Assembly: GCA_025839675.1 (NCBI GenBank) | Contig: CP104013.1 | Span: 5,190,001 to 5,222,000 of the forward strand | Direction: 5' to 3' | Length of the DNA stretch: 32,000 nt | From: Candidatus Lokiarchaeum ossiferum | Lineage (GTDB): Archaea > Asgardarchaeota > Lokiarchaeia > Sigyniarchaeales > Promethearchaeaceae | Shown: piece by piece, positions 704-26,720 of the stretch | How positions within the stretch are numbered: position 1 is the first letter of the stretch | How the letters are laid out: each line of letters begins with the position of its first letter | Program-made: the position numbers and the translations under genes | Notes under the pieces: model-generated | What the model saw: only the letters and a program-made list of their open reading frames with translations | Databases searched by the model: none | What the model was told of the DNA's origin: nothing

Positions 704-3361
704 TTATTCTTTCACTTTGCCTTTCAAATAGCAAACACCTTTTTGAGTCAAAGAATCCAAGGTAAGATGAATTTTTTGTCCTGTTTCCATCTTATCTGCA
801 TCTATCACTTTAAGGGCATAGGACCAGTTCTCGTAATCAGGAAACAGTTGTTTCAAAATATTGGGGACTGTATGGAAAAAGGTGCGATTTAGTTTGAAAT
901 CGCCCTTATCTGGATTCATGGCAAAGTAAATAATATTGTCTTCTACGATATTATTGAAGAAATGAGTTCCTAACGAAATATCGGGAACAAGGCCGTCATG
1001 CATTTCGGCAATTTCTCCCATCACAGTGACATTACTTATTTCTGAATAATTTACAGGAATTCCTAAACTTGGCGTGGTTGTTCCCCATCTACCAGGTCCT
1101 AGCAATAAAATTTTATGTCCCTTAGAATTTGACAACTCATTCAATTTTCCGATTAATCTTGCAATGGAGTACTTTTCACGGGTAGTCAATTTTCCATAAA
1201 TATTTGGGACTACGTAAATAACTCGATCTATTAAAATTGCCCGACTCGTTCCAATTATTGGCCCATTGGTTTCAAAGATTAATTTTTTTGCTTGGATATT
1301 TTCTGGCATTTTTATTTTGTGGATTTCTTTATGAACTTGAAAAGGACGACATTGGAGTAAATTTATGCGAAAATCCGATGGATTCATGAAATTGGCTGTG
1401 TACTCTATATCGACGGGGTTGACATAGACTTCTTGCAAACATTCCATTAAACGTTTCATTGTACTGATAAAATTTGTGTTTGAAATCACAGGATCAAAAG
1501 TGAGAATTCCGGTGAACACATCTTTTCTTCCTGCATTTTCCATCCTTTGTTCTAAACCCCTATCCGTGGTTGTGAAAAGTTCCAACGGTAATTCTTCAAT
1601 TTTCGGAGCCACTTTGTAGATGTGATTGTTGGAAAATTGGTTTTGTTTTAAGTCAATATAATCAAATTTATTTTGGGAATATTTTCGTATTTGTTCGACA
1701 TTCGAGGAGGTTCGTAAATCAGGGATATTTAAAGCGATTAATCTCGTATAATCATCATCCGTTCTATCTACTGCGCGGGTACCAAGTCCAAAAACCATTC
1801 GGAGAAATCCCGATTTGGGATCGATTTTCTTATTCCACACAAATGGATTGTATGAAAACCCCACCCCAGCGAGATGCGGGAAAAATATATCCTCATATTT
1901 CACACCTGAAACCCTCATGATTAAAAGAGCCATTTCTTCATCTTTGTCCAACAAACCTCGAGAACGACGATACTGCAAAGCATCACGATTAATGGTGCTA
2001 GCATAGATTTCTTTTACTGCTTTGACAAAATTTCGTAATCTTTCTTCTGGTGGTCCCTGATTTGGGCAAAAAATAGTCATATATTTTCCAGAAAAGGAGT
2101 TACCAAAGGCATCTTCTTGAAGACTACTTGAACGTACAACAATAGGTGACTGGCCAAAATAATGTAACATTTCAGAAAATTGGCGCAAGATATATCTTGG
2201 AAAAGTACCATTGATTATTTTTGCTCTAGCTTCATCTATACCTTGCAAAAAAGTGTTAGGATTGGATAGTCGTTTACGATCCCACCAAATATCATTCGTA
2301 ACCAAATAACTATAGAATAAGTGAGATCCTATATAAAAAGAATCGTGTTTTTCTAATTTGCGCGCAATTTCGGGTTCATTTTTCCGTAAAATGGCTCGGG
2401 CTAATATCAATCCAACTGTTTTTCCTCCCACAAGCCCCGTTCCAATCATTCGTCTGCCGATTATCAGTAGATCTTCCAAAGTAATAAATTGGACTGCTAA
2501 AACGCGCATTCGATCATCTTGAACAAACATTCGTCGCATAATTTTATTTTTCAAAAGTTCTGGGTTGATCTCAGGTTTTTGTCCTTTTTTTATGCTTTTT
2601 AGAACATCATCGGCTTGTTTAAAGAGTAAAAACCAAGAATCCATTCTTCGAATAGTGAAATCTAGCTCTGAAATTGGCGTGTTTGATAAGGTTTTTGCAA
2701 CAATTCCGCTTTGATTAACCGGGATAAAATCTCCTGTAGGATCAGTCGGATCTATCCATTGATGTAGCATGTAAATCGTGGATGAATGTCGATTTAACAC
2801 TTTTAAGGGGTGAATAAACACTCCATCATCGTTTTTATGTACATTTATCACGATTGAAGCTGCATTGTGAATTTCTTTTATAGAATGGGATGCGTTACTA
2901 TCTCTTTTAATTATAAAATATCCGATACTATCATTTTTTTTTAAAAAGGGTGCAATTAATACAAAGAAATTTGCAATCATTACGTCGCTGAACCATTCGA
3001 CGGCTAAATTGGTTAAATGATCAAAAATATAATAAATTCCTTTCCCCTTTCCACTCATTTCCCTAATAATATTTGATAAGCAATGTTCAAATCCTTCGCT
3101 TGGATTAATATAAATTATTGTTCCTGCACTATCATTTGGGATAAAAGAAAAATGTTCTGCAAATCGGAAGTAGACAAAACTTTTTTTCTCTTTATTTGCA
3201 TTCCGTGCATAATTATAAACAAACGGTTTTATATTCTGAAGATCTTCCACTTGCCATACTAAAGTATCTCCTGGAACTATACCTTTAAGGATATTGTCTA
3301 ACCCAAATATTCCTGTGCTGAATTTCTCGTTTTTTGACGTACTATTTTCTTCTCTATTCAT
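704..3361 (-). CDS. Large PEP/pyruvate-binding (PPDK_N ATP-grasp) domain protein with degenerate KaiC/RecA-like N-terminal domain, paralogue 2
   Basis: 885-aa ORF with ATG at 3361. The N-terminal ~220 aa are collinear with KaiC/RadA-type RecA-fold domains (FSTGIFGLDNILKGIVPGD, IFDHLTNL, HPLKVLNRH), but the Walker-A position reads LVWQVEDLQNIK rather than GxxGxGKT. The middle carries PPDK_N signatures GLVGGKTVG, VVRSSSLQEDAFGNSFSGKY, MALLIMRVSG, GVGFSYNP and VFGLGTRAVD. The C-terminal ~230 aa carry GPGRWGTTTPSLGIPV and PDISLGTHFFNNIVE blocks that I cannot assign to a family. No phosphohistidine swivel motif was seen. Confidence 0.8.
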   Translation of the reverse strand: MNREENSTSKNEKFSTGIFGLDNILKGIVPGDTLVWQVEDLQNIKPFVYNYARNANKEKKSFVYFRFAEHFSFIPNDSAGTIIYINPSEGFEHCLSNIIREMSGKGKGIYYIFDHLTNLAVEWFSDVMIANFFVLIAPFLKKNDSIGYFIIKRDSNASHSIKEIHNAASIVINVHKNDDGVFIHPLKVLNRHSSTIYMLHQWIDPTDPTGDFIPVNQSGIVAKTLSNTPISELDFTIRRMDSWFLLFKQADDVLKSIKKGQKPEINPELLKNKIMRRMFVQDDRMRVLAVQFITLEDLLIIGRRMIGTGLVGGKTVGLILARAILRKNEPEIARKLEKHDSFYIGSHLFYSYLVTNDIWWDRKRLSNPNTFLQGIDEARAKIINGTFPRYILRQFSEMLHYFGQSPIVVRSSSLQEDAFGNSFSGKYMTIFCPNQGPPEERLRNFVKAVKEIYASTINRDALQYRRSRGLLDKDEEMALLIMRVSGVKYEDIFFPHLAGVGFSYNPFVWNKKIDPKSGFLRMVFGLGTRAVDRTDDDYTRLIALNIPDLRTSSNVEQIRKYSQNKFDYIDLKQNQFSNNHIYKVAPKIEELPLELFTTTDRGLEQRMENAGRKDVFTGILTFDPVISNTNFISTMKRLMECLQEVYVNPVDIEYTANFMNPSDFRINLLQCRPFQVHKEIHKIKMPENIQAKKLIFETNGPIIGTSRAILIDRVIYVVPNIYGKLTTREKYSIARLIGKLNELSNSKGHKILLLGPGRWGTTTPSLGIPVNYSEISNVTVMGEIAEMHDGLVPDISLGTHFFNNIVEDNIIYFAMNPDKGDFKLNRTFFHTVPNILKQLFPDYENWSYALKVIDADKMETGQKIHLTLDSLTQKGVCYLKGKVKE

Positions 3362-3424: not shown

Positions 3425-6046
3425 TTATTTATAACAATAACCAATTTGAGTAATTGAGTTCATGTTTAGTTTGACTTCTCTTTCTTTATTGATCAGGGGG
3501 GGATCAATAACTTTGATTGCGTGTTCCCACTGCTGACCATTTGGTATAATCTCCAAAAGTTGGTTCTTTTCTGAGACGAAATAATCCCGATTTAAGTAAT
3601 TATCTTTTCCTTCAGGGTTCAATGCTATATAGAGCATATCAAGTTCAACTATATTGTTGAAAAAATGGGTTCCCAAGCTAATATCGGGGATTAACCCTGA
3701 ATGCATTTCTGCAATTTCACAAATTATTGACACTTGATTAATTTCCGCAAATATTACTGGAATTCCTAAACTCGGAGATGAAGTTCCCCATCTACCTGGA
3801 CCTAATAACATGATCTTCTTTTTCTTTGAAGAAGGGTGATGATTAATTTTTCCAATTAAACGCGCAATTTCATGACGATCTCGCATGCCCATTTGACCGT
3901 AAATTTTAGGAACGATGTATATTATACGATCTAGAGTTGTGGCAATACTTGTTCCAATTATCGGTCCTGAAGTTTTAATAATAATCTCTTTTGACTCAAT
4001 TTCTGAAGGGGAATCAATTATTTTTATTTGAGATTTGATTTGGAATGGTCTACACTGTAATAAATTAATCTTATATTTTTGATCTTTGAAAAAATTCACG
4101 GAAAACTCAACATCAACTGGAGTTTGATAGGCATGTTGTAATGTTTTTAAAATATTACCAAAATCTTTGATGAAATTTGTTTCTCTTAATAGACGATCAA
4201 AAGTTAGAACTAATGAAAAAGGAATTGGACGATTTGATTCTTCTGCTCTTTTTTCAAGTTCTGCATCTCTTTCAGCATACAATTCAATAGGAATATTTGG
4301 ATTTTCCTTCATTACAGCTCGAAAGCGGTGCGTTGTTAAATGATTTTCCTTAAGATCAAGAACATCTACCTTTTTCTGAGAAACAGGCAATATATCAGAA
4401 AATGATTTTTCTAAACGTAAAGTGGGGCAATTGACAGCAACTAATCGAGTGTAATCATCGTCGGTTCGGTCTACTGCCCGTGTTCCCAATCCAAAAACCA
4501 ATCGAATAAAACCTGCTTTAGGATCTATTCTTTGATCCCATACATAGGGATTGAAAGAAAATCCCACCCCTGCTGCTTGAGGATAAAAATAATTTCCATA
4601 TATTGATCCGGAGACACGTTGGACAAGTAGCGCCATTTGTTCGTCCATATCTATCAATCCTCGCATTTTACGATATGTTAAAGCATCTTTTCCTACTGTA
4701 CTAGCGTACACAGTTTTTACTGCTTGAAGAAATTTTTCCATTCTTTCTTCAGGTGGTCCTTGATTCGCCAAAAAAACACTTTCATATTTTCCTGAAAATG
4801 AATTTCCATAGGCATCTTCTTGCAAACTACTTGATCTGACGATTATTGGTGCTTGACCGTAATAATCGAGCATGTTTTCAAATTGTTCCATTATATGAGG
4901 GGGAAATACTCCAGCCATTATTTTTTGGTTCGTTTCTTCTAAATTCGTTAAAAAGGTCTCTTCTGCACATAATTTTCTTCTTTCCCACCAGCAATCATTT
5001 TCTACCAAGAAGGAATAATATACTTCGGATCCAATAAAAAAAGAATCTTGAATTTCAAGAATATCTTCCCACTTTGGATCATCCTTTTTTAAAATTGCTT
5101 GTGCGATAAGCATTCCGACCGATTTTCCACCGATTAGTCCCGTACCTATAAGACGTTTTCCAATGGCTAGTAAATCTTCTAATTCAAAATAATTCACCGC
5201 TAAAATGAATAGTAAATCGTCTCGGACAATTGCCATCTTTAATAAACGATTTTTAAAAATATTCGCTTGTACGGGTGATATTTCTCCCAATAAGATGCCT
5301 TCTAAAGTTTCTTGCGCTTGTTTAAATGTGATATGCCATAGATCCTGCTTTTTCCCACGAAAATCAAGCCAAGGTTGCAATTTTCGCGCTAATATTTTGG
5401 CAATTGTTGCACTTTCTTTAACAGGATAAATGACATCTTCTGAATTTTCTTTTTTATCCCATTTATGAAGCATATAAAGGGTTGGGGAATACCTTTTTTC
5501 TACTTTAATGGGTTGTATATATATCTCTTCTTCATTTTCATAAATTTCGAGAACAACTTGGGCCGTTTTTTGAATATTAGTTATTGTATTTATTTCATGG
5601 CGATTTCGCATGAGAGCAAAATAGGCAATAGTATCAAATTTGTAAAGATAAGGGCAAGTTAACATAAAAAAATTTCCAACCATGACATCACTATACCAAT
5701 CAACCGCCAAATTACTTAGAGAATCGAATACATAACATGTTCCGATACCGAATTTTTCAATCGTGGAAATTATTTGAGAAACAAAGTTTTCAAATCCTTT
5801 TTCTGGTTCTAAATGATAGATATGATATTCCACATCTTCAGGGACTAATCGTTCATGGAGTGCAAATCGAAAGTAAATGATTTCTTTTCCTTCAGCATAT
5901 GCTTGACGAGTGAAGCGGTGAACAAATGGGATAAAAAGTTTTATTGATTCTAATCGTAAAACAACATTATCGCCTGGTTTCAATCCGTGAAGCATTGAGT
6001 CTAATGGAAGAATCCCCGTACTAAAATTCAAATCGACATTTTTCAT
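3425..6046 (-). CDS. Large PEP/pyruvate-binding (PPDK_N ATP-grasp) domain protein with degenerate KaiC/RecA-like N-terminal domain, paralogue 1
   Basis: 873-aa ORF with ATG at 6046, collinear with the downstream 885-aa protein over its whole length. Shared blocks include FSTGILPLDSMLHGLKPGD, GLIGGKSVG, IVRSSSLQEDAYGNSFSGKY, GVGFSFNP, VFGLGTRAVDRTDDDYTRL, LLQCRPFQ, GPGRWGTSSPSLGIPV and PDISLGTHFFNNIVE. The Walker-A position is again non-canonical (VVLRLESIKLFIPF). Confidence 0.8.
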   Translation of the reverse strand: MKNVDLNFSTGILPLDSMLHGLKPGDNVVLRLESIKLFIPFVHRFTRQAYAEGKEIIYFRFALHERLVPEDVEYHIYHLEPEKGFENFVSQIISTIEKFGIGTCYVFDSLSNLAVDWYSDVMVGNFFMLTCPYLYKFDTIAYFALMRNRHEINTITNIQKTAQVVLEIYENEEEIYIQPIKVEKRYSPTLYMLHKWDKKENSEDVIYPVKESATIAKILARKLQPWLDFRGKKQDLWHITFKQAQETLEGILLGEISPVQANIFKNRLLKMAIVRDDLLFILAVNYFELEDLLAIGKRLIGTGLIGGKSVGMLIAQAILKKDDPKWEDILEIQDSFFIGSEVYYSFLVENDCWWERRKLCAEETFLTNLEETNQKIMAGVFPPHIMEQFENMLDYYGQAPIIVRSSSLQEDAYGNSFSGKYESVFLANQGPPEERMEKFLQAVKTVYASTVGKDALTYRKMRGLIDMDEQMALLVQRVSGSIYGNYFYPQAAGVGFSFNPYVWDQRIDPKAGFIRLVFGLGTRAVDRTDDDYTRLVAVNCPTLRLEKSFSDILPVSQKKVDVLDLKENHLTTHRFRAVMKENPNIPIELYAERDAELEKRAEESNRPIPFSLVLTFDRLLRETNFIKDFGNILKTLQHAYQTPVDVEFSVNFFKDQKYKINLLQCRPFQIKSQIKIIDSPSEIESKEIIIKTSGPIIGTSIATTLDRIIYIVPKIYGQMGMRDRHEIARLIGKINHHPSSKKKKIMLLGPGRWGTSSPSLGIPVIFAEINQVSIICEIAEMHSGLIPDISLGTHFFNNIVELDMLYIALNPEGKDNYLNRDYFVSEKNQLLEIIPNGQQWEHAIKVIDPPLINKEREVKLNMNSITQIGYCYK

Positions 6047-6186: not shown

Positions 6187-7806
6187 TTACAATAATTGAA
6201 GAATAACATTGAATTGTTTTATCTCATTCTCTTCCTTTTTCTTCCCAAAAGCAGTCAATGTTATTTCATCCAAATTTTTCAATTCAAATTCTTCCAGCTT
6301 TTGTGGACCTGTTCGTCCTTTTTCAAAGAGGGGGTTATAGACAAATTGTTTCGTCAAGGGATTGGTAATCATCCAACCGTCAAGAGTGATGGAAGAATTC
6401 ACTTCATTCATTGCCTTGAATAAATCGGATACAGTGCTTTCTTTTGGAAGTGCAACGGTTAAGTTTTCCTGTCCTTTTCCAGATCCACAAACCACGCATG
6501 AGTCAATTCTCGAAATATCGACTTGATCAAATATTCCGTATACTCCATTGTAATTGATGTAGGGAGGATCCATAATCGGTCCAACATTTTTTCCTGCTTT
6601 TAAGAAAACTAATTTAATTGCTTCCTGAGATTGAATCGAAGAAATAATTGAGCTAACACTTTGGATCGCTGGAATTTTATTTCCTAAGATATTTTCCATA
6701 TCTTCTAATTCAAAATTATTTCCAAAAGTGTGCAAAATATTTTTTTTTATTTGGCTTACTTCTTCAGAAGAAATCTGAGTTTTATATTCGGGGGGAATAC
6801 TCTCATCTAACACTCTTGCACGCAACTCTTCTAATTCTTGTTGAGCGAATGCTAATGTTTCAGTCATTTCTATTTTATTGTTATAATCGGGTTTCCTCTC
6901 AAATTTCTTTGAAAATAATACTTCCCCTCGAATAGCACAATGTTCGCGAGTCCGTGGAATTCCTTTTAATGTGCAAGCTGCGACTTGATTTCTAAGCGGT
7001 GGGGGGATTGGGACAACGCATCGATAGCAAGGTGTAAAATTACACAATTCGTCTCGTTTTTCTAAAAATTCAACTTTTGCCTCTTTCTTTAAATCTTCTA
7101 GAACTGGAGTAATTTTTTCCTTCTTAATTTGGGCAATTTTATCTTCAAGCTGTTCTATTTCTGTCATTCCTAAGAAATATTGCGGATGATTTTCTTCTTC
7201 TAATGCCCAAAGTTTCTCTTGAAATATGCTATCTATCTTTTTTGTTTCATTTCCAAAAGGAATTGGTTCTCCGAATTTGTCCATTGTTTTTTCAGGCAGA
7301 ATCACCTGGACATGTCCTTCAAAACCCACGGTCCCACCTTCAATTAGTGGGATTTTCAACTTTTGGCAAAATTTATTTAGATCCATGCGTGCTTGAACAT
7401 TATCCAAAGCTGCGATGACTACTTGACATTCTAAATATTTTTCCATTGATATTTTCTGAAGGGGAATTGTATATACTTCCGTTTCCATAAAAGGATTCAT
7501 AAGTTTTAGTCGCTCAGCGGCGACTTCTGCTTTGTATCTGCCTTCATCTCCCTTGTAAAATAACATCTGGCGTGATAAATTGCTGGTTTCAATTGTGTCC
7601 AAATCACATAGGATCAATTTTCCTATACCTGCAAGGGCAAGATCCTTCGCAATTTCACAGCCTAAAGCCCCAACACCTGCGATAAAAACGGTGGAGTTTT
7701 TAACGATATTCTGATCCCATCCCTCAATTAGTTTTTGCCGTTTTGTGCGTTCTCGTTCTTCCTGAGAAAGACTCCTTTTTTTAACTTCAACAGATTTATT
7801 TGGCAT
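6187..7806 (-). CDS. Eukaryote-type ubiquitin-like-protein activating enzyme (E1-like, ThiF/MoeB/UBA superfamily) with catalytic-cysteine segment and C-terminal beta-grasp-like tail
   Basis: ATG at 7806 gives MPNKS...; the listed start at 7812 is a TTG two codons upstream. The adenylation domain shows GVGALGCEIAKDLALAGIGKLILCDLDTIETSNLSRQMLF and ALDNVQARMDLNKFC. A first CxxC (TPCYRC) is followed by PPP and then AACTLKGIPRTREHCAIRG. That segment parallels the catalytic-Cys region of eukaryotic Uba3/Uba2 as I remember it (PMCTIASMPRLPEHC). A second CxxC (CVVCGSG) precedes a ~95-aa C-terminal domain. Confidence 0.85.
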   Translation of the reverse strand: MPNKSVEVKKRSLSQEERERTKRQKLIEGWDQNIVKNSTVFIAGVGALGCEIAKDLALAGIGKLILCDLDTIETSNLSRQMLFYKGDEGRYKAEVAAERLKLMNPFMETEVYTIPLQKISMEKYLECQVVIAALDNVQARMDLNKFCQKLKIPLIEGGTVGFEGHVQVILPEKTMDKFGEPIPFGNETKKIDSIFQEKLWALEEENHPQYFLGMTEIEQLEDKIAQIKKEKITPVLEDLKKEAKVEFLEKRDELCNFTPCYRCVVPIPPPLRNQVAACTLKGIPRTREHCAIRGEVLFSKKFERKPDYNNKIEMTETLAFAQQELEELRARVLDESIPPEYKTQISSEEVSQIKKNILHTFGNNFELEDMENILGNKIPAIQSVSSIISSIQSQEAIKLVFLKAGKNVGPIMDPPYINYNGVYGIFDQVDISRIDSCVVCGSGKGQENLTVALPKESTVSDLFKAMNEVNSSITLDGWMITNPLTKQFVYNPLFEKGRTGPQKLEEFELKNLDEITLTAFGKKKEENEIKQFNVILQLL

Positions 7807-7909
7807 TGTCAAAAATTACTAGGCTTTTGATCTTTAAAGAAATTTCGTGCAAAATAAATATCCTTAGATGAAAATGAAAATGAAAAAAATGATTTTAACT
7901 ATATAAAAA

Positions 7910-8896
7910 TTATATTTTAATTGGCTTGCCAGTAAAAGGATTGAACATGGACGTCACATTCATTCCAAATAAATCTCGCACTCTTAATCGAAAAACGTAG
8001 GTGAGAATATTTTGAAGAATGATTAATACAAGTAATATCCCGTTTAAGACCACGATCATTCCAAACCAAATTAAATTTGCTTTTCCAATTACCATAACTA
8101 CAATGCAAAATGTCTTAATCACTGTTCCTCCGACAAAAGACCAAAGTTTATGCATAATCGAGAACGTTTGTTTGTAGATCTTTTGATATTCTGTCTTGAT
8201 TTTTAATTTTTCATCAGATGGAAGCTGAGCAGGAATATTTAATTTTGGGATTGGGGAGATTGCTTGGTAAAAATTTGTAATGAATTTGACAATTATTTTA
8301 AAGGGGTGGAGATCTTTCTTTCGCTGTTTTCGGGCTTCTTGTTCTTCAGGGAAACAAAACATCTCGAACTTATTATTCTGATAAGTATCTAATTCTTGGA
8401 CATATCTTGCACGAAAATTATCATAGGCTAGCACTTGTAACCCTAAGGAAAGCCCTAACACTATTCCATACACAAAAACATACATTCCTCGAGTATCAAA
8501 TTCTGCTATCATCAAACCAATAACCACAAACATAAAACCTAAGACATCACAAACTGCATCAAAGTAAGCCCCGATTTTGCTAAATTTTTTCAAATTTCTT
8601 GCCAGTGATCCATCTACATTATCGAGAACATGACCAACTAACAACATCATTCCTCCCCAAAAGAAGTGTCCTGTGGCAATAAATACTCCGGACAAGATTG
8701 TTATTATAAAGCCAATTACGGAGATTTGATTGGGCGTCATATTCAATTTTTTAGCAACCATTACTAAAGGAAAAGCCATTGGACGGTATATCAACTCATT
8801 TAAGAATTCACCGTTTTGCTTGGCACCTTTGTTATATTCTTCTACTATTTTTTCAGTACTTGTAATCATGTTGTGCACATTCTGCAAATATTTCAT
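7910..8896 (-). CDS. CDP-alcohol phosphatidyltransferase family membrane protein with long C-terminal extension
   Basis: Exact family motif D(x)2DG(x)2AR(x)8G(x)3D(x)3D in DNVDGSLARNLKKFSKIGAYFDAVCD, with multiple hydrophobic helices. A charged soluble-looking segment (RARYVQELDTYQNN...KIKTEYQKIYKQ) and further helices follow the core. At 328 aa the protein is longer than typical ~200-aa archaeal family members. The ATG at 8896 lies 9 nt after the stop of the upstream gene. Confidence 0.85.
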   Translation of the reverse strand: MKYLQNVHNMITSTEKIVEEYNKGAKQNGEFLNELIYRPMAFPLVMVAKKLNMTPNQISVIGFIITILSGVFIATGHFFWGGMMLLVGHVLDNVDGSLARNLKKFSKIGAYFDAVCDVLGFMFVVIGLMIAEFDTRGMYVFVYGIVLGLSLGLQVLAYDNFRARYVQELDTYQNNKFEMFCFPEEQEARKQRKKDLHPFKIIVKFITNFYQAISPIPKLNIPAQLPSDEKLKIKTEYQKIYKQTFSIMHKLWSFVGGTVIKTFCIVVMVIGKANLIWFGMIVVLNGILLVLIILQNILTYVFRLRVRDLFGMNVTSMFNPFTGKPIKI

Positions 8897-8905
8897 TAAA
8901 AAAAA

Positions 8906-10066
8906 TTATCTCCAGTCAAAGTAAAAGGTGTTTAATTTTTCTGGAAGAGGTAAAGTTGAATGATTTTCTTGATAAAATGCATCAATATAAATTTTTTTTG
9001 GGAATAGGATGAATTTTGCTTTTTTAAACGGTATTGCATTAAAATATTTGATATAGGGCATCTGAATCCCTGCCCATCCCATTTCTTTTGATTGAATTGC
9101 CAAAAATTTGGCTAAATCTGTTGCATCGGTTTGTTTTAACCTGTAAGTGTGGACTAAATCTAACCATCCAAATGGAACCGATTCCCCATATCCTGCGAAT
9201 AAAAATTCCCACGCTAAAAGAAATCCGTCCACATCTCCATGTGTATTTTCATGAACTACACAATTTACTCCCGGTTGATTTAAATACCATAAAAAATCTT
9301 TTTCCTCATGAACGATTGCCATTTCATTTTGTTCTACATGGTCACTCATTAGTTCAAATAAAATTGGGCCATCTTCTGGCTCATATCTTCTAATTTGTGA
9401 ATTAGGTTTATATTTGATTTTTGGAGGGGATAATATTTTGAGACCCCATCGTTCATACCGTTTTAATTTGAAAACTTTTTTTACTTTCTGGATATCAAAG
9501 ATACGGATTAAAAAATGGTTAATATTAGCTAATCTCTTTAATGGGATTAAATCTGTTTCCCGTGAAACTGCTGCACTCAAGTCTTTTCCATGTTGTTCAG
9601 GTTCATGGAAGGAAAAAGCAATATTATAGCCTTTCTCTATCAACATTTTCCTTACTTCTTTCCCCATTTCAACTGAAATTCCTTTTCGTTGGTGCTTCCA
9701 ATGGACTGCTGCCCAAGCTGGAATTGCACATTCGAATAATGAATTTTGATAGTGAACCGTTCGTGGTATGCATCCAATAAATCCAATTACTTCATTGGTT
9801 GGAATATGAATTGCTCTAACAAAAAGATCTTTAGGCAAGTAAGGTGAACCAAAAATTCTCCGAAAAGTTTCTTCATTGAATATCAAGACTCCTCCCTCTT
9901 TTTTAGCCATTTCATCATTTAGAAAAGCGGTGGTAATAAGGTCAGAAATCTCTTTATAATCGGAATCGTGAAGAGTAAACTGTTCAATTTTATATTCTTG
10001 CCCTTGATTACCTTCAATTTCACCAGGGGTGTCCATAATTTCTTGATTTTCTACAATACTCTTCAT
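8906..10066 (-). CDS. Tandem-GNAT acyltransferase, N-myristoyltransferase (NMT)-like
   Basis: 386-aa ORF with ATG at 10066. It has a GNAT acyl-CoA motif region (AAVHWKHQRKGISVEMGKEVRKML). By eye it is collinear with both lobes of eukaryotic NMT as I remember yeast and human sequences. Matching blocks are FNEETFRRIFGSPYLPKDLFVRAIH..NEVIGFIGCIP, then IRRYEPEDGPILFELM, VVHENTHGDVDGFLLAWEF and KEMGWAGIQMPY...FKKAKF. The overall size is similar to the NMT catalytic core. Confidence 0.55.
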   Translation of the reverse strand: MKSIVENQEIMDTPGEIEGNQGQEYKIEQFTLHDSDYKEISDLITTAFLNDEMAKKEGGVLIFNEETFRRIFGSPYLPKDLFVRAIHIPTNEVIGFIGCIPRTVHYQNSLFECAIPAWAAVHWKHQRKGISVEMGKEVRKMLIEKGYNIAFSFHEPEQHGKDLSAAVSRETDLIPLKRLANINHFLIRIFDIQKVKKVFKLKRYERWGLKILSPPKIKYKPNSQIRRYEPEDGPILFELMSDHVEQNEMAIVHEEKDFLWYLNQPGVNCVVHENTHGDVDGFLLAWEFLFAGYGESVPFGWLDLVHTYRLKQTDATDLAKFLAIQSKEMGWAGIQMPYIKYFNAIPFKKAKFILFPKKIYIDAFYQENHSTLPLPEKLNTFYFDWR

Positions 10067-10115
10067 TTTTTTTCACATTTATTTAGGCATTAAAATTTAA
10101 TTCATGAAATGTCTA

Positions 10116-10127
10116 TTTATATAAATA
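10116..10127 (-). promoter_or_regulatory. TATA-box-like element upstream of the NMT-like/CDP-alcohol transferase gene pair
   Basis: Near-palindromic TTTATATAAATA about 50-60 nt upstream of the ATG at 10066, in the 201-nt gap after the GTPase gene. Confidence 0.35.
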
Positions 10128-10267
10128 ACTATTTGATTTTTAACTTTTGCTACCATTTCCATCAATAATTGACAATTGGCAACAAATCACTTAAAACTAG
10201 AAGAGGCCAGTTTTTGGAAAAAATGTGTTTTTACAATGAGAACCAACACATAATTCGGCCCAGTATT

Positions 10268-10876
10268 TTACTTATTAGCTAATTTCTTCATATTAAATTT
10301 GTAGGATTCGTTCAAAATTTCATTAGTGAGAATGTGAATATCTTTGCCTGTTTTTGAACTGATTGTGTAAAATTTATCTAAATTCAATTGACGGGCAATA
10401 TCTATCATTGTATCCATTGCCACTTCTTTTTCTTCGTCAGAATTCAATAAATCCGCTTTTGTCCCAACTAAAATGATCGGGGCGTCTGCAGGGGCATTCT
10501 CTTTCCAAATTTCAAACCATTCTTGAATATACTTTGTGGTGCTAAATCGGGTTAAATCAAAACAAATTAATCCTCCCACCGCTCCTTTACAGTAACGTGG
10601 TAGCATAAATCTAAATCGTTCTTCTCCCGCAAAATCCCAAATTTGAGCTGCAATCTCAATGGAATCAAAATCATCAGCATCTTCAGGAGCAAAAGGATCC
10701 ATGATTGCTGTTTTGTATAAATGGAAATCTACTCCGATGGTCATTTTAGTTTTACTATCAAAAATACCTGTAATCATCCGTTTTGTGAGTGTTGTTTTGC
10801 CAACCCCGCCTTCTCCCAAAATACATATTTTAAGGACATTACTTGGGGGTTTGTAGTTTGATTTTGATGCTGTCAT
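10268..10876 (-). CDS. Rab/Ras-like small GTPase
   Basis: G1 is GEGGVGKT. Switch I is TIGVDF, matching the Rab-type IGVDF motif. G3 is WDFAGEERF, G4 is GTKADL and G5 is SSKTG. I place the start at ATG 10876 (MTASKSNY...); the listed start at 10921 is a TTG. There is no C-terminal cysteine, so no prenylation motif. Confidence 0.9.
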   Translation of the reverse strand: MTASKSNYKPPSNVLKICILGEGGVGKTTLTKRMITGIFDSKTKMTIGVDFHLYKTAIMDPFAPEDADDFDSIEIAAQIWDFAGEERFRFMLPRYCKGAVGGLICFDLTRFSTTKYIQEWFEIWKENAPADAPIILVGTKADLLNSDEEKEVAMDTMIDIARQLNLDKFYTISSKTGKDIHILTNEILNESYKFNMKKLANK

Positions 10877-11210
10877 AACTGAAATTCTTATCCTAGGATT
10901 CCTAAACGTTTCTATGATCAATTAGGTTGTAATAGCTATTAAGATTTTTCTGGATGAAAGGTTTTTTTTTTATCTGCCTTCTTTGAACGTATCTTTAATT
11001 AAGAAATCTTAAGAATTTTTGGCCATAATTCAATATGGGAAATATATATCTATGATGTTTAATCAATATTTAAGAAAATTGACAATGGAAAAAAAGGTCA
11101 TAAAAGAGATAGCTAAGAAGACTCCCTTAGAACTGTCCTTTTATTGATTAGAAGAAGGAAAAATTCGTTTAGCAGAAGCATTAAGGAAACAAGATATAAA
11201 AAAGAAAAAA

Positions 11211-12620
11211 CTAATACTTTATGAAGAGAATCACAATTAAAATTATCCTTACAATAAAATAAATTAGGGCCAAAACAATTGCGATTTTATAAATAGAACT
11301 CGCAGTGGTGTTTTCTTTAGCTCGCTGATAAAATTGATTCTCTAATTTATTCCATACCATACCGATTGAAAAAGTAATTAAAAGATTCAACGGATAGAAC
11401 CATAGATAATTTAGGGGTGATCCATCAAACATGTCAGGAGTGGGATCGATAGGATCAAACATTGTTAAGAAAAATTGGTAAACAATCGAAAAATAAAATA
11501 TCTGAGTGAGAAGGATATGGTAAGTTGATTTACTTATACGCCGGATAATATCACTAAGCTTACCTTTTGGATTCATTGGAAAAAAATTCATTCCAATTAA
11601 AAAAAGAAAACCAGAATAGGGAAAAAATCCGAGATTATAATCACCAGTCAAAAAATACCAATTTCCGTACTCTTGATACATGATGATGTAGATCAAGGAT
11701 AATAGACCTATGGGCCATATAAAAAAATTCCTAGGTGATAACAAATCGTGATCAGTGGAAAACCAAAGTCCCATTCCTACTGCACTAAATAGTGCAAATA
11801 CATGACATGAAAAATAAGACGTCATGACTCTTGCTGGATTATCCCAAGCAAAATATCCGTATAAACCTGCCTTGATGAAGTACCATGATATTTCAATTAC
11901 AAATGTTCCAAAAATGGTAAGTACTGAGTTCCTTTTATAGCACCAGTAGAGTAATGGGAAGATCAGAATTGTTGACATGAGCACGGGGAGAAACCACATT
12001 CCCGGTCCATAGAAGGGAGTATATCCAATAAAAATATTCTGAAAATTTTCATAATATACAACATCATTGGTCTCGAAGAAATCTGCAGATTCAAATATAA
12101 AAAGAACTGTGTGGGCGAGATACAAAATCAAAAAGGGGACCACATATCTTTTCATTTTGTTTTCGATGTAGGAAAAGCTATACATCTCTTTAAGAGTCCG
12201 TAATCCTTGTTTATCAAATGATTTTCCCATATTAAAGCCCATAACAATCATTAGAATTGGGATTGATATCCGTTCCCAATATGATGATCCATAATCGTGT
12301 AAAAATGTATGGGTAAAGGTGTGATCCATTATAACAAGAGCGATCATCAGAGTCTTCCAAGCATCTACTTGAAAGTACCGCTTGGATTTGACAATTGATC
12401 GTGAGTCATTTGGTAATTTTTCATTGGATTCCTCGATCAGTGGGTCATTAAGAATTGTATCATTCATTCGCGGGTTAATAAATATTGCTCCAATGATCGA
12501 AATTGTCATAAAAATAAATAGAATCAGGGTTAAGATGAGTGATTCTAACCCCATAGTAAAGATCAAAGCGTAAAAAGACAATAAAAGGATTGTTATGAAA
12601 ACTGCATCTGAATTTTTCAT
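11211..12620 (-). CDS. Polytopic membrane protein, acyltransferase-3 (OafA-like) family candidate
   Basis: 469 aa with many hydrophobic helices. The N-terminal signature VDAWKTLMIALVIMDHTF resembles the (R)xxxDxxRxxAxxxVxxxH opening motif of acyltransferase-3 family membrane O-acyltransferases. ATG at 12620. Confidence 0.55.
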   Translation of the reverse strand: MKNSDAVFITILLLSFYALIFTMGLESLILTLILFIFMTISIIGAIFINPRMNDTILNDPLIEESNEKLPNDSRSIVKSKRYFQVDAWKTLMIALVIMDHTFTHTFLHDYGSSYWERISIPILMIVMGFNMGKSFDKQGLRTLKEMYSFSYIENKMKRYVVPFLILYLAHTVLFIFESADFFETNDVVYYENFQNIFIGYTPFYGPGMWFLPVLMSTILIFPLLYWCYKRNSVLTIFGTFVIEISWYFIKAGLYGYFAWDNPARVMTSYFSCHVFALFSAVGMGLWFSTDHDLLSPRNFFIWPIGLLSLIYIIMYQEYGNWYFLTGDYNLGFFPYSGFLFLIGMNFFPMNPKGKLSDIIRRISKSTYHILLTQIFYFSIVYQFFLTMFDPIDPTPDMFDGSPLNYLWFYPLNLLITFSIGMVWNKLENQFYQRAKENTTASSIYKIAIVLALIYFIVRIILIVILFIKY

Positions 12621-12742: not shown

Positions 12743-15049
12743 ATGAAGGAAAACAAATTAGTCCCCTCAGAGTTATCAAAAAATTATTCAGGAACATCTG
12801 CTTTTTTTACTCCTGACTGGATGGTCACGTGCATCCTTCAAGGTACGGAGTATTTTCTCACTCAATTTTTTAATAAACCATTGGGATTGAGTGATCCTTC
12901 CCTGGTGTATTTAGAACCTTCGGCTGGTGAACTGATTTTTCCGCTAACATTATTCGATCATATATATGAAAAAAATTCAAAAGAGAAGTTCAAAGAAATT
13001 ATTCGCTCGTTGATTAAAGATCGATTGTTTTGTTATGAAATTAATCTTGACATCTATAAAAGTGGTAAACAAAATTTAAAGCGTTATATTCAAACAAAGA
13101 GGGGATTGGGTGATTTAAATTCATCTTTTAAGCATTTTTTTTTGGAGAACACTGTAGAAGATAATAATAATACTGAGGCCTTAAACAATAGAGATCAAAT
13201 ACCCCATTCATCAGAAGATTGTCTAATTATTTTTGGTAATCCTCCTTATTCTGTGAGTAATACTACAAATCGTCCGTGGATAAAGTCTTTGGTGGAAGAC
13301 TATAAAATTCACCTAAATCGACCCGGAAGAAAAAAAATCGTAGGATTGAAAGGGATTCAAGATGATTATGTGAAATTCATCCGTTTAGCTCAATGGAAGT
13401 TAGCTGATCAAAACCACCCGGGCATTTTTGCTTTCGTGGTCAATAATTATTTCATTGATGGAGATATTTTTCGAGGAATGCGCTCCTCCCTTCTCTCTGC
13501 TTTTGATTATCTCTATATCATCAATCTTTTTGGAGATCCTAAAAAATCAAAATCCAATTTCTCATCAAATCAAGAAAAACAAATAAAAACCTATGATGAA
13601 AATCCGTTTGATATTCAAACAGGAATTTGTCTCATATTCGCCATCCTCCAAAAGCCTGATTGTAAAGGAAAAGAAAAGCGTGAAAAATGTAAAGTCTTTT
13701 ATGCAGAAAAAAGAGGTTCCAAAACTCAAAAAAAACAGTTTCTTCTTCAAAAATTTGAAAAAATTTCTTTTACTGAGGTAGATCCTCGGATCGATCTTGA
13801 GTTTGTTCCCATCAGCCAGAAATTATTGAAAAAGGAAGTGAAATATAACTCCCTCCCATATCTTCCAGAAATTTTTCAATATAATATTATCGGGATTCAA
13901 TCTTTGCATGATACATTGATTACCCATCCAGATAAATCCAGACTCGTTGATATACTATCAAATTTTTATAATGGATTTTTTTCAAGCAAAGAAATAACCG
14001 ACACAAAAAATCAGAAATGGGTGAAATTTGATGGAGTTTCATATCATGACGCACGAGATTGGAAAATTACCGATGGCTTAGCGGGTTTTTTGATTAAAGC
14101 TAAAAAAAATATCATTAAATGGCAATGGCGAGGGTTTGATCAATGGTGGGTTGCCTATGATGAAAATTTGATGACAAAGGGTTCTAGTAGTTATAGTCTA
14201 ATGCAATATTTTCTTCCTCCAAATTCGAATCTCGCAATTGGCGTGTCTAAAGTTTCTCGAAAAGCAGATGGGACATCGAGTGTATTCATTACGGACCAAA
14301 TATCTGAATCTCATTTTATTGAAGGTGGATCTGGGATCGGTGATTATATATTTCCATTAAAAGTTGGCAAAAACAAAAAAAAAAAAAACGATTGGAATCT
14401 TCCTGATTCTGCTTGTGAATATAATTTATCTTCCATGATTCTTCACCATTTAAACAAGCTATATTCAGTTCAACATATTGATCCAGAAGATATTTTTTTC
14501 TATATTTGTGCAATTTTGAATTGCTCGAGGTATTCTACAAAATATCAATTTTTCTTGAAAAAGGATTTTCCCCATATTCCTTTTCCCAAAAAAATGGCTG
14601 AATTTATTCAGTTCAGTAAGATTGGAAGAAAATTTGCTCAATTATATACTTTTAACATTGATTCATCTTCAGTAAGCCAATTTTCTCTTAGTAAAGCACA
14701 GAATATGCAAATTATTTCCCCTTATTATGACCCTCTTCAGAAAAAAATCTTTTTTCAAAAAAATTCAAAACATCCAGCAATAAATTCTTCTAATAATAGA
14801 TTTTGGATTGGAAATATTGATGAATCTATGTGGAACTTTGAAATTGGTGGAATTCGTCAATTGGAATTATGGTTAAAACACCGAAAATACGTTTCTCTCA
14901 CTAATTCGGGAAATGTATCAAAAAAATTTGGATTTACTCGGAGTATTTCTGACGATGAGTTAAACCATTTCTTAAAAATATGCGTTGTAATTAAATCAAT
15001 TTTAGAATTGAAACAAAAAGTAGATTACCTATATTCACAGATTTTTTGA
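12743..15049 (+). CDS. N6-adenine DNA methyltransferase, YeeA/type ISP-like MTase plus target-recognition module (no nuclease or helicase part)
   Basis: Gamma-class order of motifs: FFTPDWMV (motif X), YLEPSAGELIF (motif I position) and IIFGNPPYSV (motif IV, NPPY). QDDYVKFIRLAQWKL and FAFVVNNYFIDG follow. The C-terminal WNFEIGGIRQLELWLKHRK matches the IGGYxVxxKWLKDRK signature I associate with type ISP/YeeA C-terminal domains. Confidence 0.7.
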   Translation: MKENKLVPSELSKNYSGTSAFFTPDWMVTCILQGTEYFLTQFFNKPLGLSDPSLVYLEPSAGELIFPLTLFDHIYEKNSKEKFKEIIRSLIKDRLFCYEINLDIYKSGKQNLKRYIQTKRGLGDLNSSFKHFFLENTVEDNNNTEALNNRDQIPHSSEDCLIIFGNPPYSVSNTTNRPWIKSLVEDYKIHLNRPGRKKIVGLKGIQDDYVKFIRLAQWKLADQNHPGIFAFVVNNYFIDGDIFRGMRSSLLSAFDYLYIINLFGDPKKSKSNFSSNQEKQIKTYDENPFDIQTGICLIFAILQKPDCKGKEKREKCKVFYAEKRGSKTQKKQFLLQKFEKISFTEVDPRIDLEFVPISQKLLKKEVKYNSLPYLPEIFQYNIIGIQSLHDTLITHPDKSRLVDILSNFYNGFFSSKEITDTKNQKWVKFDGVSYHDARDWKITDGLAGFLIKAKKNIIKWQWRGFDQWWVAYDENLMTKGSSSYSLMQYFLPPNSNLAIGVSKVSRKADGTSSVFITDQISESHFIEGGSGIGDYIFPLKVGKNKKKKNDWNLPDSACEYNLSSMILHHLNKLYSVQHIDPEDIFFYICAILNCSRYSTKYQFFLKKDFPHIPFPKKMAEFIQFSKIGRKFAQLYTFNIDSSSVSQFSLSKAQNMQIISPYYDPLQKKIFFQKNSKHPAINSSNNRFWIGNIDESMWNFEIGGIRQLELWLKHRKYVSLTNSGNVSKKFGFTRSISDDELNHFLKICVVIKSILELKQKVDYLYSQIF
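14375..14388 (+). repeat. A14 homopolymer inside the methyltransferase CDS
   Basis: Direct count gives c-aaaaaaaaaaaaaa-c at 14374-14389, encoding part of GKNKKKKND. It is the longest coding-region homopolymer I noticed in the window. Confidence 0.95.
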
Positions 15050-25051: not shown

Positions 25052-25229
25052 CGTATTTTCCAAAAAAAAAGGTTTCACCAGCTATAAATAACAAAATCAT
25101 TCTCGATAACTAAGTTCAATACTTCCAGTCTCTGTTCAAACGCGAATAATTTCGATGTCAGGTAATTATCGATGAGTAATTAAAAATCGGGTCTGGAAAC
25201 ACGGACGGTCTTAAAACATGGTGGCAAAC

Positions 25230-25859
25230 ATGATAGAAAACAAATATGTTTCGTATAAACGAAAAAAGCGCTCAAAGTTGCGACGGGCAAGCGAGGGTAT
25301 GACTGCGGCTATTATTTTAATTGCGTTCATTATCACCGCGGCAGGGATTGCATTTGTGATTTTAACAATGGGATCCGAAATGCAGCTCGAGTTAGGAAAT
25401 GTAGGACAAGAAGGGAAAGATGCTGCTTCATCTGCACTTCAAGTCGAAGGTGGAATTGTTACTGGTTATTCTACCGCTGGTACAACTGTTACTGGATTTG
25501 CATTTAATGTCAAACTAGTTCTTCCGACAGGTCAAGTTGATTTGTCTTCGGATGCAATAACTGTTTGGTTGAAAATTGGTTCGGATGAAGAAGTCGAATG
25601 TACTTATGAAGGTGCTGCTTTTTCTACCTTAGCCGCTGCAGGAGCAAATAATGACGATGAATATTACATAGGTTGGCCATCTGGTTCTGGAGATGTAATT
25701 ACTTCCAGTGAAATGGCAAGATTTTATGTTAGTGCAACAACTGCAAACGGTGCCATCGAATCTGAAGATGTAGTCATCATACTAAATACAGGTGTTGCTA
25801 CTTTGAAAATAACTAAAACAATCCCAATTGGATTAGTCACTGGAGTAAACTTACTATAG
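25230..25859 (+). CDS. arlB: Archaellin (archaeal flagellin) 1
   Basis: A basic leader ends in RRASEG. It is followed by MTAAIILIAFIITAAGIAFVILTMG and GQEGKDAASSALQVEGGIVTGY. This is very close to the class-III signal and N-terminal helix of Sulfolobus-type archaellin as I remember it (GLDTAIILIAFIITASVLAYVAINMG ... GEETASTALTLSG). The ATG at 25230 is preceded by GGTGGC; the listed ATG at 25218 overlaps that Shine-Dalgarno-like sequence. Confidence 0.75.
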   Translation: MIENKYVSYKRKKRSKLRRASEGMTAAIILIAFIITAAGIAFVILTMGSEMQLELGNVGQEGKDAASSALQVEGGIVTGYSTAGTTVTGFAFNVKLVLPTGQVDLSSDAITVWLKIGSDEEVECTYEGAAFSTLAAAGANNDDEYYIGWPSGSGDVITSSEMARFYVSATTANGAIESEDVVIILNTGVATLKITKTIPIGLVTGVNLL

Positions 25860-25874
25860 GACAAGGTGAAAAAA

Positions 25875-26495
25875 ATGCAAAACAAATATGTAGAATACAA
25901 ACGTAAAAAACGCTCAAAAGTCAGAAAAGCGAGTGAAGGAATGACTGCTGCAATTATTTTAATTGCTTTCATCATAACAGCTGCGGGAATTGCTTTTGTC
26001 ATCTTAACAATGGGTTCTGAAATGCAACTCGAGTTAGGAAAAGTTGGAAGTGAAGGTAAAGACGCTTCTTCATCTGCAATGCAGGTAGAAGGTGGTATTA
26101 TTACAGGTTATACTGCTGCATCAGCAGTTCAAGCATATGGTTTCAACATCAAGCTGGTGTTATCCACAGGACAAGTAGATTTATCTTCAGATTCTATTAG
26201 TGTATGGTTATCTGTTAACCATGGTGAAGAAACAGATTTAGCTTATGATGCAAATCTCGAAACACTTGCTAATGCAAGTGCTGAAGCAAGTAATGAATAT
26301 GATATAAATTGGTATGATGGAACTGGAGATGTATTAACTGGAAATGAAATGGCTCGATTCCTTATCAGTTCAACCACTGGTGCAACTGAATCTCAAGAAG
26401 TTTTAATTGTGATCAACTCTGGTGTAGCTACTTTAAAAATTGAATTGAGTATTCCAATTGGTCTCGTTGCAGCCGGATCAAATATCTTGCAATAA
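25875..26495 (+). CDS. arlB: Archaellin 2
   Basis: Same N-terminus as archaellin 1 (KRKKRSKVRKASEGMTAAIILIAFIITAAGIAFVILTMGSEMQLELG) and same C-terminal GVATLKI..IPIGLV block, with a divergent middle. The ATG at 25875 lies after GGTGA; the listed GTG at 25866 lies inside that motif. It starts 15 nt after the stop of archaellin 1. Confidence 0.75.
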   Translation: MQNKYVEYKRKKRSKVRKASEGMTAAIILIAFIITAAGIAFVILTMGSEMQLELGKVGSEGKDASSSAMQVEGGIITGYTAASAVQAYGFNIKLVLSTGQVDLSSDSISVWLSVNHGEETDLAYDANLETLANASAEASNEYDINWYDGTGDVLTGNEMARFLISSTTGATESQEVLIVINSGVATLKIELSIPIGLVAAGSNILQ

Positions 26496-26605
26496 TCTTT
26501 TTTAAATAACTTTTTTAATCCATTTGACTTCCTGATTTTTTTAGTTCTCTTTTTGCAATTTTCAAATTTTATTTGTAAAATCAATTAGAATATTTTTAAA
26601 TTTTT

Positions 26606-26617
26606 AACTATAAATAG
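26606..26617 (+). promoter_or_regulatory. TATA-box-like element for archaellin 3
   Basis: AACTATAAATAG lies about 100 nt upstream of the ATG at 26721, which implies a long leader. It is followed by TTCGATGT (26626-26633), an 8-mer that also occurs upstream of archaellin 1 at 25151-25158. Confidence 0.35.
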
Positions 26618-26720
26618 TAATCTTTTTCGATGTACGTAACTCTTATTTCATGATCCTGTTGGGTGGCTCCCTAATAAATGGTTCAAGAAATAAAATAGAT
26701 CAAATATATTGGTGGCTAAT

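Follow-up and report, generated by a model that had tools for sequence, protein, structure and literature searches.

An N-myristoyltransferase-like double-GNAT protein of Lokiarchaeum and its prokaryotic relatives

The double-GNAT gene and its relationship to NMT

The window analyzed here is a stretch of 32,000 nucleotides from Candidatus Lokiarchaeum ossiferum (contig CP104013.1, positions 5,190,001 to 5,222,000), which is AT-rich throughout, with a GC content of approximately 33%. Two open reading frames (ORFs) on its reverse strand, encoding 386 and 328 amino acids (aa), follow one another closely and were found where an original prediction, read by eye from the DNA, had placed them (Table 1). 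The first encodes a protein resembling eukaryotic N-myristoyltransferase (NMT), an enzyme with two GNAT lobes in a single chain, and the second a CDP-alcohol phosphatidyltransferase. The main subject of this study is the 386-aa protein: its relationship to NMT, its possible function and the meaning of its neighbor.

Databases contain a "hypothetical protein" of Ca. Lokiarchaeum ossiferum with 98% identity to the 386-aa protein. Its 84 close homologs come from Loki-, Thor-, Heimdall-, Hod-, Gerd- and Sigynarchaeia, and "GNAT family N-acetyltransferase" is the most specific annotation that any of them carries. As a single sequence it matched the Pfam models Acetyltransf_9 (E 3.9e-6) and NMT (N-terminal domain; E 5.7e-4), gave no match in an NCBIfam search, and retrieved weak matches from the PDB (E ~0.01), every one of which was an NMT.

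When the PDB was searched with a profile built from an alignment of 38 family sequences (A1; mean column identity 54%), the first 35 distinct sequences retrieved were all NMTs, with a best E value of 1.2e-11. The first protein of another kind was Naa30, at E 0.011; Eis was reached at E 2.7, over the N-terminal lobe only, and HisAT/NAT16, Ta0821, MshD and FemX were not found at E≤10. With these searches the comparison with the Eis, MshD and FemX families, suggested along with the original prediction, has been carried out. A generic double-GNAT family as the best match, with no significant NMT match, was the outcome named beforehand as refuting the NMT assignment; NMTs head both this list and that of the structural search described below, and the assignment stands.

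Profile-profile alignment (hhalign) of A1 with a eukaryotic NMT alignment gave a probability of 97.9% and an E value of 5.4e-13 over 223 columns, running from the N-terminal lobe into the C-terminal lobe, and with a fuller NMT alignment these values were 99.1% and 9.4e-19. The AlphaFold2 model of the 386-aa protein, built on A1, had a predicted local distance difference test score (pLDDT) of 90.4 and a predicted template-modelling score of 0.88. Only residues 1-20 were disordered in this model, and the start in most homologs lies about 20 residues later. When the model was compared with the PDB by Foldseek, all 50 listed matches were NMTs, with E ~6e-21 and a template-modelling (TM) score of ~0.72 over ~380 aligned columns. 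Within the alignment, 33 of the 38 members matched the Pfam NMT (N-terminal) model (best E 6.4e-12), all 38 matched Acetyltransf_9 (best E 2.7e-12) and 27 matched Acetyltransf_1; NMT_C was matched weakly, by three members (best E 5e-4).

These findings identify the 386-aa protein as a true homolog of NMT along both of its GNAT lobes, and NMT as the closest solved or characterised relative. The likeness recognized by eye in the original prediction is therefore upheld by profile, profile-profile and structural comparison, and lies far beyond chance. Hydropathy analysis of the protein revealed no hydrophobic segment (KD19 maximum 1.21): it is soluble and has no membrane-binding feature.

For lobe 1, the correspondences with conserved NMT blocks that had been drawn by eye were reproduced by profile-profile alignment, which matched the lobe to FRFDYSxEFLxWAL, KLVGFISAIP and NFLCVHKKLRSKR. 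The start of lobe 2 was aligned with LRPMETKD.. and VVENANGEVTDF of NMT. In this lobe, IRRYEPEDGPILFELM and VVHENTHGDVDGFLLAWEF were covered by hhalign against NMT, and the remainder was aligned through sub0, an intermediate prokaryotic family described below. Of the three lobe 2 blocks proposed earlier, the first two were thus recovered by profile-profile alignment; the last, KEMGWAGIQMPY..FKKAKF, was not recovered directly (E 0.27) and was recovered by way of sub0. Alignment to NMT starts from the strand equivalent to PDFTWDALD, and the absence of the N-terminal FWxTQPV segment of NMT, remarked on earlier, was confirmed. In NMT this segment (FWxTQPV / B'A') covers myristoyl-CoA.

Motif A of the GNAT superfamily (Q/R-x-x-G-x-G/A after the beta4 strand) is present in the 386-aa protein; on the basis of established knowledge of the superfamily we take it to be Q126-R-K-G-I-S131. 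It is preceded by the strand P116-A-W-A-A-V-H122, in which P116 is invariant throughout A1 and which hhalign places in register with I-N-F-L-C-V-H, the oxyanion-hole strand of NMT. The oxyanion hole of NMT is made by backbone atoms, and the alignment of the two strands accordingly says nothing of the hole itself, which sequence cannot judge.

Table 1. Features of the locus (window coordinates; all on the reverse strand)
Feature	Position	Strand	Remarks
ThiF/E1-like gene, downstream anchor	6187..7806	-	Pfam ThiF E 1.3e-53; synteny
CDP-alcohol phosphatidyltransferase gene	7910..8869	-	319 aa from conserved Met10; 328 aa from ATG at 8896 (ORF 7910..8896)
Hydrophilic insert of ~90 aa, TM4-TM5	8150..8419	-	residues 151-240 (319-aa numbering); hydropathy
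Catalytic motif D-x2-D-G-x2-A-R-x8-G-x3-D-x3-D	8546..8623	-	strict regular-expression match
Conserved 36-nt spacer	8870..8905	-	T8 tract at 8898-8905 directly after the GNAT stop codon, then A/T-rich
NMT-like double-GNAT acyltransferase gene	8906..10066	-	386-aa ORF; stop codon 8906-8908
C-terminal pentapeptide Y-F-D-W-R-COOH	8909..8923	-	counterpart by position of the NMT C-terminal tail
C-terminal pseudo-GNAT lobe, presumed acceptor-binding	8909..9403	-	residues ~222-386; hhalign and sub0 bridge
N-terminal GNAT lobe, presumed acyl-CoA-binding/catalytic	9497..10006	-	residues ~21-190; Pfam and NMT block alignment
GNAT motif A, Q126-R-K-G-I-S131, pyrophosphate-binding signature	9674..9691	-	family consensus Q-R-K-G-L-A
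Ras/Roc-type small GTPase gene, upstream anchor	10268..10876	-	202 aa from ATG; Pfam Ras E 6.8e-31; no Gly2

C-terminal tail and wider prokaryotic superfamily

The C-terminus is invariant in the family. A (W/F)-R terminus was found in 84/84 database homologs, 68 of which end in YFDWR; W-R stood directly before the stop codon in 68 of the 69 ORFs of fetched loci, and Arg was the last residue in all 87 full-length core-family sequences. The terminal beta-strand of the model, residues 381-383, belongs to a block with a pLDDT of 88. In NMT the free C-terminal carboxylate is the catalytic base.

The register of the tail was obtained with sub0 as a bridge. The alignment of this subfamily to the Asgard family runs from end to end (hhalign E 7.3e-53), and its alignment to NMT reaches column 436 of 449 (E 8.5e-28); taken together, the two set SKE-GW-GLQ-P on AK-KGFDVFNAL and KKAKF-iffpKkL-idlf on LKF-GxGDG-l-YYLYNWK. 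For the last block this is exactly the register given in the original prediction, and it is supported by the order of elements in the model: helix 312-328, strand 333-337, helix 345-349, long strand 353-365, loop, strand 381-383, end. From the last long strand to the C-terminus there are 20 residues in the Asgard protein and 14 in human NMT1; the claim that this distance resembles that of NMT found no support in direct comparison (E 0.27) and was sustained through the sub0 bridge. An alternative register, FYFDWR on YLYNWK, obtained by direct global hhalign and leaving NMT with an extra tail, was rejected: it had near-zero confidence, the isolated C-terminal thirds are without significant similarity (E 0.27), and both the bridge and the element order favor the other register.

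Judged from these alignments, the Asgard tail is positionally equivalent to the catalytic tail of NMT and under extreme constraint, and its carboxylate is predicted to lie in the active site.

When 1.84 billion representative proteins were searched exhaustively with the profile, 288 matched with E≤1e-3, 83 of them with E≤1e-10 and 21 with E≤1e-30. Against the Asgard profile the core family scored 355-610 bits, a second tier of ~90 prokaryotic double-GNAT proteins (~350 aa) scored 43-121 bits, and eukaryotic NMTs scored 43-55 bits. An Arg or Lys terminus was present in 48 of the 90 tier-2 proteins, often as Y-x-(D/E)-hydrophobic-R, and several tier-2 proteins pass the curated Pfam thresholds for both NMT and NMT_C. 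One tier-2 locus (L080) showed an ordinary prokaryotic gene neighborhood.

The main tier-2 subfamily, sub0 (alignment A4), comprises 57 representative clusters with a mean column identity of 25%. Judged by profile-profile scores, it lies nearer to NMT than does the Asgard family (hhalign E 8.5e-28 vs 9.4e-19). In the PDB profile search it reached E 4e-25, each lobe being significant alone, vs 1.2e-11 for the Asgard family; no solved structure inside tier 2 was found by this search, and a look-up of the tier-2 clusters gave neither protein names nor taxa. By median score against the NMT profile the Asgard core was somewhat higher than tier 2 (25 vs 13 bits).

Proteins of this kind have been touched upon in the literature. 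A 2025 paper on HisAT/NAT16 reports AlphaFold models of "NMT-type" double-GNAT proteins, with the C-terminus at the active site, in archaea and bacteria, including a Thorarchaeota protein in its table; this is a remark in passing, with no description of function or family for the prokaryotic proteins (PMC12219266). The archaeal and bacterial proteins so modelled probably belong to tier 2. As cited in the same paper, NMTs are reported as limited to eukaryotes. A search for literature linking NMT to Asgard archaea or Lokiarchaeota found nothing relevant beyond this paper.

Core-family members with a YFDWR or LDWR ending also occur in true bacterial genomes (L011, L063, L059 and L049). On L011, a 5.7-Mb contig of high GC content, GGDEF and LuxR genes are neighbors; L063 is a 2.3-Mb chromosome on which the neighbors are TonB, ExbB, GlgA and ornithine carbamoyltransferase. 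The bacterial members imply horizontal transfer between Asgard archaea and bacteria. The family has also been duplicated, in tandem at two loci (L013, 6019-7116 and 7290-8432; L061, 6001-7074 and 7227-8300) and to as many as four copies in one Heimdallarchaeota metagenome-assembled genome (L010, L020, L056 and L068), which suggests diversified substrate specificity.

On this evidence the Asgard family is one branch of a broad, uncharacterised prokaryotic superfamily of NMT-like double-GNAT proteins, and by these scores it is not the closest prokaryotic relative of NMT. Because this superfamily, true bacteria included, is at least as NMT-like overall, a special relationship between the Asgard family and NMT is not demonstrated, and the Asgard-specific NMT implied by the original prediction was not borne out.

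The same evidence bears on the possibility that the protein is a functional archaeal N-myristoyltransferase, which would transfer a long-chain acyl group co-translationally to the N-terminal Gly of Asgard proteins and from which eukaryotic NMT would descend directly. Such an enzyme would agree with NMT being the closest characterised relative by sequence and fold, with the invariance of a C-terminal tail like the catalytic tail of NMT, and with the retention of the family across Loki-, Thor-, Heimdall-, Hod-, Gerd- and Sigynarchaeia. We consider it quite unlikely, given the greater NMT affinity of sub0 in both comparisons, the passage of some tier-2 proteins over both Pfam thresholds, the true bacterial members, the missing N-terminal segment that in NMT covers the acyl-CoA, and the differing residues at the positions of Asn246 and Thr282. 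The neighboring small GTPase lacks Gly2, and the Asgard Arf-family GTPases have been described as having neither Gly2 nor predicted myristoylation sites (PMC11914678; bioRxiv 10.1101/2024.02.28.582541).

The transferase gene and its syntenic slot

The product of the adjacent gene matched the Pfam family PF01066 (CDP-OH_P_transf) with an E value of 3.8e-14 and 53.8 bits (cut-off 22), and the perfect CDP-alcohol motif reported earlier was recovered as a strict match. Its best NCBIfam match was archaetidylinositol phosphate synthase (NF040950), at 60.4 bits against an equivalog cut-off of 180, and its best PDB matches, IPCT/DIPPS (4mnd; 6.4e-7), AF2299 and PIPS, covered residues 22-158 only. Among 5.8e9 proteins eight homologs were found, all at the Lokiarchaeum level; seven are 319-320 aa long and a distant one 298 aa, the window ORF being longer (328 aa). 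The protein is a genuine CDP-alcohol phosphatidyltransferase that comes nearest to archaeal enzymes of the inositol-phosphate type, and it belongs to a divergent, Lokiarchaeum-restricted family. The original prediction gave it a long soluble insertion and extra helices: the insertion is present, between the fourth and fifth transmembrane helices (TM4 and TM5), and the extra helices are not, since hydropathy and the position of the motif fit the canonical six.

A second Lokiarchaeum paralog of this insert-bearing transferase, 64-65% identical (L071, L076; 6001-6960), is located at an unrelated locus with no GNAT gene. It is adjoined there by genes for an LVIVD-repeat protein, a 341-aa unknown, a ferredoxin-like protein and a GH2 glycosidase.

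Nine bases, TTTTTTTTA, separate the GNAT stop codon from an in-frame ATG (8896-8894), and it had been argued that this gap leaves no room for a promoter and that the two genes are almost certainly co-transcribed. In an alignment of junctions (A3), the upstream ATG of the window is TAG in another L. ossiferum sequence (chromosome CP163304), and the frame is broken in ERZ26802894; the ATG of Met10 and the sequence that follows it are conserved, and gene callers start at Met10. Since the Met10 ATG is conserved, the upstream ATG is not, and the homologs are shorter, the transferase likely starts at 8869, behind a spacer of 36 nt. The 9-nt gap is therefore correct as read in the window and is not a conserved arrangement, the ATG that bounds it being specific to the window.

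Of 20 window genes, 14 have at least five consecutive T in the 25 nt that follow their stop codon; among random 30-nt segments the share with such a run is 13%. Oligo-T is an established archaeal transcription termination signal, so that the T8 tract at the start of the spacer looks like a normal gene end, of a kind usual here. The A/T-rich stretch approximately 27-36 nt upstream of the conserved ATG could act as a TATA-like box for a leaderless mRNA. With a 36-nt spacer, a gene-end-like T8 tract and space for such a box, near-certain co-transcription was not upheld; co-transcription of the GNAT and transferase genes is possible.

In the Loki group, genes for a small GTPase, a ThiF/E1-like protein and PPDK_N proteins surround a variable middle slot (window 6187-10921; L002, L079, L074 and L078), and the GTPase gene is kept upstream in L002, L074, L078 and L079. 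The slot of L002 (Promethearchaeum sp.) reads GTPase, GNAT, SBBP beta-propeller protein, ThiF, with no transferase, and that of L079 reads GTPase, CDP-OH transferase, ThiF, with no GNAT gene. The pair itself was found in three Lokiarchaeum-level genomes only: the window, the L. ossiferum chromosome CP163304, which has the same gene order, and one further assembly, in which the transferase is 91% identical. Seventy other loci encoding members of the GNAT family, from species-representative genomes, were searched by tblastn and motif scan, and at none of them was a CDP-alcohol transferase detected within 6 kb.

It could be supposed that the two genes form an operon whose products make or modify a lipid, for example one with an N-acylated amine head group, or couple protein acylation to the membrane. 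The genes lie on the same strand, 9 nt apart in the window and ~35-38 nt apart in its relatives, and the adjacency is kept in all three genomes just named. We regard such an operon as very unlikely. The pair is missing at all 70 other loci, a result that had been named beforehand as weakening the functional link, and it does so; in the same GTPase...ThiF slot either gene is found without the other (L002, L079). The transferase belongs to a tiny family confined to Lokiarchaeum, whereas the family of the GNAT protein extends across Asgard lineages and some bacteria. Moreover, the conserved spacer opens with an oligo-T gene-end signal and can hold a TATA-like box, and the GNAT protein is soluble, with no membrane-binding feature.

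Because the GNAT and transferase genes come and go independently between conserved anchors, a dedicated functional partnership is disfavored, and the lipid-coupling idea was not sustained. The transferase is probably a separate Lokiarchaeum-specific gene in a variable slot and not a functional partner, and it is by an accident of local gene order that the GNAT gene lies so close to a gene of lipid synthesis.

The small GTPase encoded upstream was considered as a substrate of the acyltransferase and was rejected: it has no Gly2, and the adjacency is confined to the Loki group.

Further genes of the window were annotated. Beyond the ThiF/E1-like gene, two tandem paralogs on the reverse strand (704-3361 and 3425-6046) encode proteins of 885 and 873 aa, with a PPDK_N (ATP-grasp-like) domain after an unannotated N-terminal region of ~300 aa. 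A membrane acyltransferase of the Acyl_transf_3 type (11211-12620) is encoded divergently from a gene on the forward strand (12743-15049) for a 768-aa protein with a Type ISP restriction-modification C-terminal specificity domain (E 6e-47) and an NPPY-type methyltransferase motif. Three tandem archaellin-family genes are located at 25218-27359 on the forward strand (PF01917, E 1e-12 to 1e-13). A 340-aa M24 metallopeptidase, possibly a methionine aminopeptidase, is encoded on the reverse strand at 27515-28537, ~17 kb from the NMT-like gene, and is probably a housekeeping protein. In eukaryotes, removal of Met comes before the action of NMT.

Proposed function and comparison with known systems

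The reading that we favor, with moderate confidence, is that the soluble, two-lobed 386-aa protein is an N-acyltransferase that depends on acyl-CoA and has the structural type of NMT, and that the transferase encoded beside it is probably not its partner. The N-terminal lobe would bind acyl-CoA and provide an oxyanion hole at the P-x-W-x-A-V-H strand, and the C-terminal lobe would be a non-catalytic pseudo-GNAT domain that shapes the acceptor pocket. As in NMT, the carboxylate at the C-terminus, perhaps assisted by the Arg side chain, would enter the interlobe active site and there help to position the acceptor amine or to remove a proton from it. The acceptor would most likely be an amino group of a peptide or protein (an N-terminal alpha-amine or Lys) and, next to this, a free amino acid or small amine.

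Several observations weigh against parts of this reading. By the curated Pfam thresholds for PF01233 and PF02799 the protein, NMT-like as it is, yet stays outside the formal NMT family: it scored 20.2 bits where 25 are required for NMT, and gave no match to NMT_C. The isolated C-terminal thirds of the Asgard family and NMT did not match significantly in direct comparison (E 0.27). In the hhalign alignment, Asn246 of human NMT1 corresponds to Ala/Ser and Thr282 to Asn/Asp in the Asgard family; since these equivalents are not conserved, the catalytic detail may differ from that of NMT. Since the gene pair is retained, with a short spacer, in three Lokiarchaeum genomes, the two genes may yet be co-transcribed by read-through and may have a local functional link.

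The gene neighbors of the family elsewhere are clade-specific: Sir2 occurs at 11 loci, M20 at 10 and M28 at 13, and TPR, DinB_2 and methyltransferase genes were also seen. Each of these was considered as a conserved neighbor that might point to the substrate and was rejected as such, since each recurs within sub-clades only; they are leads and not evidence.

A Sir2-family deacylase (PF02146, E 2e-33) is encoded near the NMT-like gene at 11 Heimdall-type loci, immediately downstream and convergent in L034, L038, L047 and L054, and one gene further in L012, L016, L022, L039 and L052. Eukaryotic sirtuins take off the lysine myristoylation put on by NMT. The arrangement could reflect an acylase/deacylase pairing or simply clade synteny. 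At ~10 other Heimdall-type loci (L024, L026, L029, L037, L040, L041 and others) the gene is part of a conserved block, c6 c2 GNAT c5 c7, that encodes an M20 peptidase (aminoacylase-type), an M28 peptidase, a DinB_2 protein and a conserved protein of ~520 aa (cluster c7). This block hints at N-acyl-amino-acid or N-terminal processing chemistry.

Some of these observations would also fit an N-acyl- or N-acetyltransferase that, like HisAT/NAT16, acts on a small molecule (a free amino acid, polyamine or metabolite) and does not modify proteins. All 38 aligned members match generic GNAT models as well (Acetyltransf_9, best E 2.7e-12), about ten Heimdall-type loci have the gene in the block with M20 and M28 peptidases, and paralog expansion and tandem duplication are common among metabolite-modifying enzymes. 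Double-GNAT enzymes with small-molecule substrates are known, HisAT/NAT16 acting on histidine (PMC12219266). This reading seems to us rather doubtful: HisAT/NAT16, Ta0821, MshD and FemX were absent from the PDB profile search at E≤10 and Eis came in at E 2.7, the nearest solved match other than NMT was the protein N-terminal acetyltransferase Naa30 (E 0.011), and at 11 other loci the neighbor is the Sir2 protein deacylase. The neighborhoods, being clade-specific, carry no consistent signal.

An extension of the favored reading, that of an N-acyltransferase of the NMT structural type, is that Asgard archaea and scattered bacteria N-acylate proteins, possibly with fatty chains, by NMT-type enzymes with a catalytic C-terminal carboxylate, and that eukaryotic NMT descends from this superfamily. 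We think this unlikely as a whole; if true, protein N-acylation of the NMT kind would be older than eukaryotes. The window comes from an Asgard archaeon of a cultured lineage and holds a strongly conserved NMT-like member with an invariant C-terminal tail. As the Lokiarchaeum lineage is in culture, this copy is directly testable. The origin of protein N-myristoylation thereby gains named candidates and becomes a question that is concrete in both biochemical and phylogenetic terms, and a tempting link between an NMT-like gene and membrane-lipid synthesis is removed as unsupported.

Among known systems, the transferase resembles the archaeal CDP-alcohol phosphotransferases (archaetidylinositol-phosphate synthase, IPCT/DIPPS, AF2299) in its perfect motif and in homology over JM1 to TM4. 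It differs from them in scoring far under every NCBIfam equivalog cut-off and in the insert of ~90 aa between TM4 and TM5.

HisAT/NAT16, Ta0821, MshD, Eis, VipF and FemX/MprF share with the Asgard family an architecture of two fused GNAT domains with one catalytic lobe; none of them, in contrast, was a significant sequence match, Eis being reached at E 2.7 over the N-terminal lobe and the others being absent at E≤10. The HisAT type is defined by a beta-hairpin with a substrate-binding Trp, and not by a C-terminus at the active site (PMC12219266). The tier-2 prokaryotic proteins are like the Asgard family in length, are homologous to it from end to end and likewise have no NMT N-terminal segment, whereas they are much more diverse and more NMT-like.

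The closest of the characterised systems is NMT itself, represented by NMT1/NMT2 and yeast Nmt1p (PF01233 and PF02799). Both are single-chain double-GNAT proteins with collinear lobes (TM score 0.72), and in both the last long strand is followed by a short tail to a fixed C-terminus. They differ in that the Asgard family is prokaryotic, ~360 aa long and ~15% identical to NMT, and has no N-terminal K-box/FWxTQPV segment, beginning ~5-25 residues before the first beta-strand. The Asgard tail ends in W-R and the NMT tail in hydrophobic-Q/L/M, and where the Asgard family has the canonical GNAT motif Q-x-x-G-x-A, NMT has R-S-K-R-V-A.

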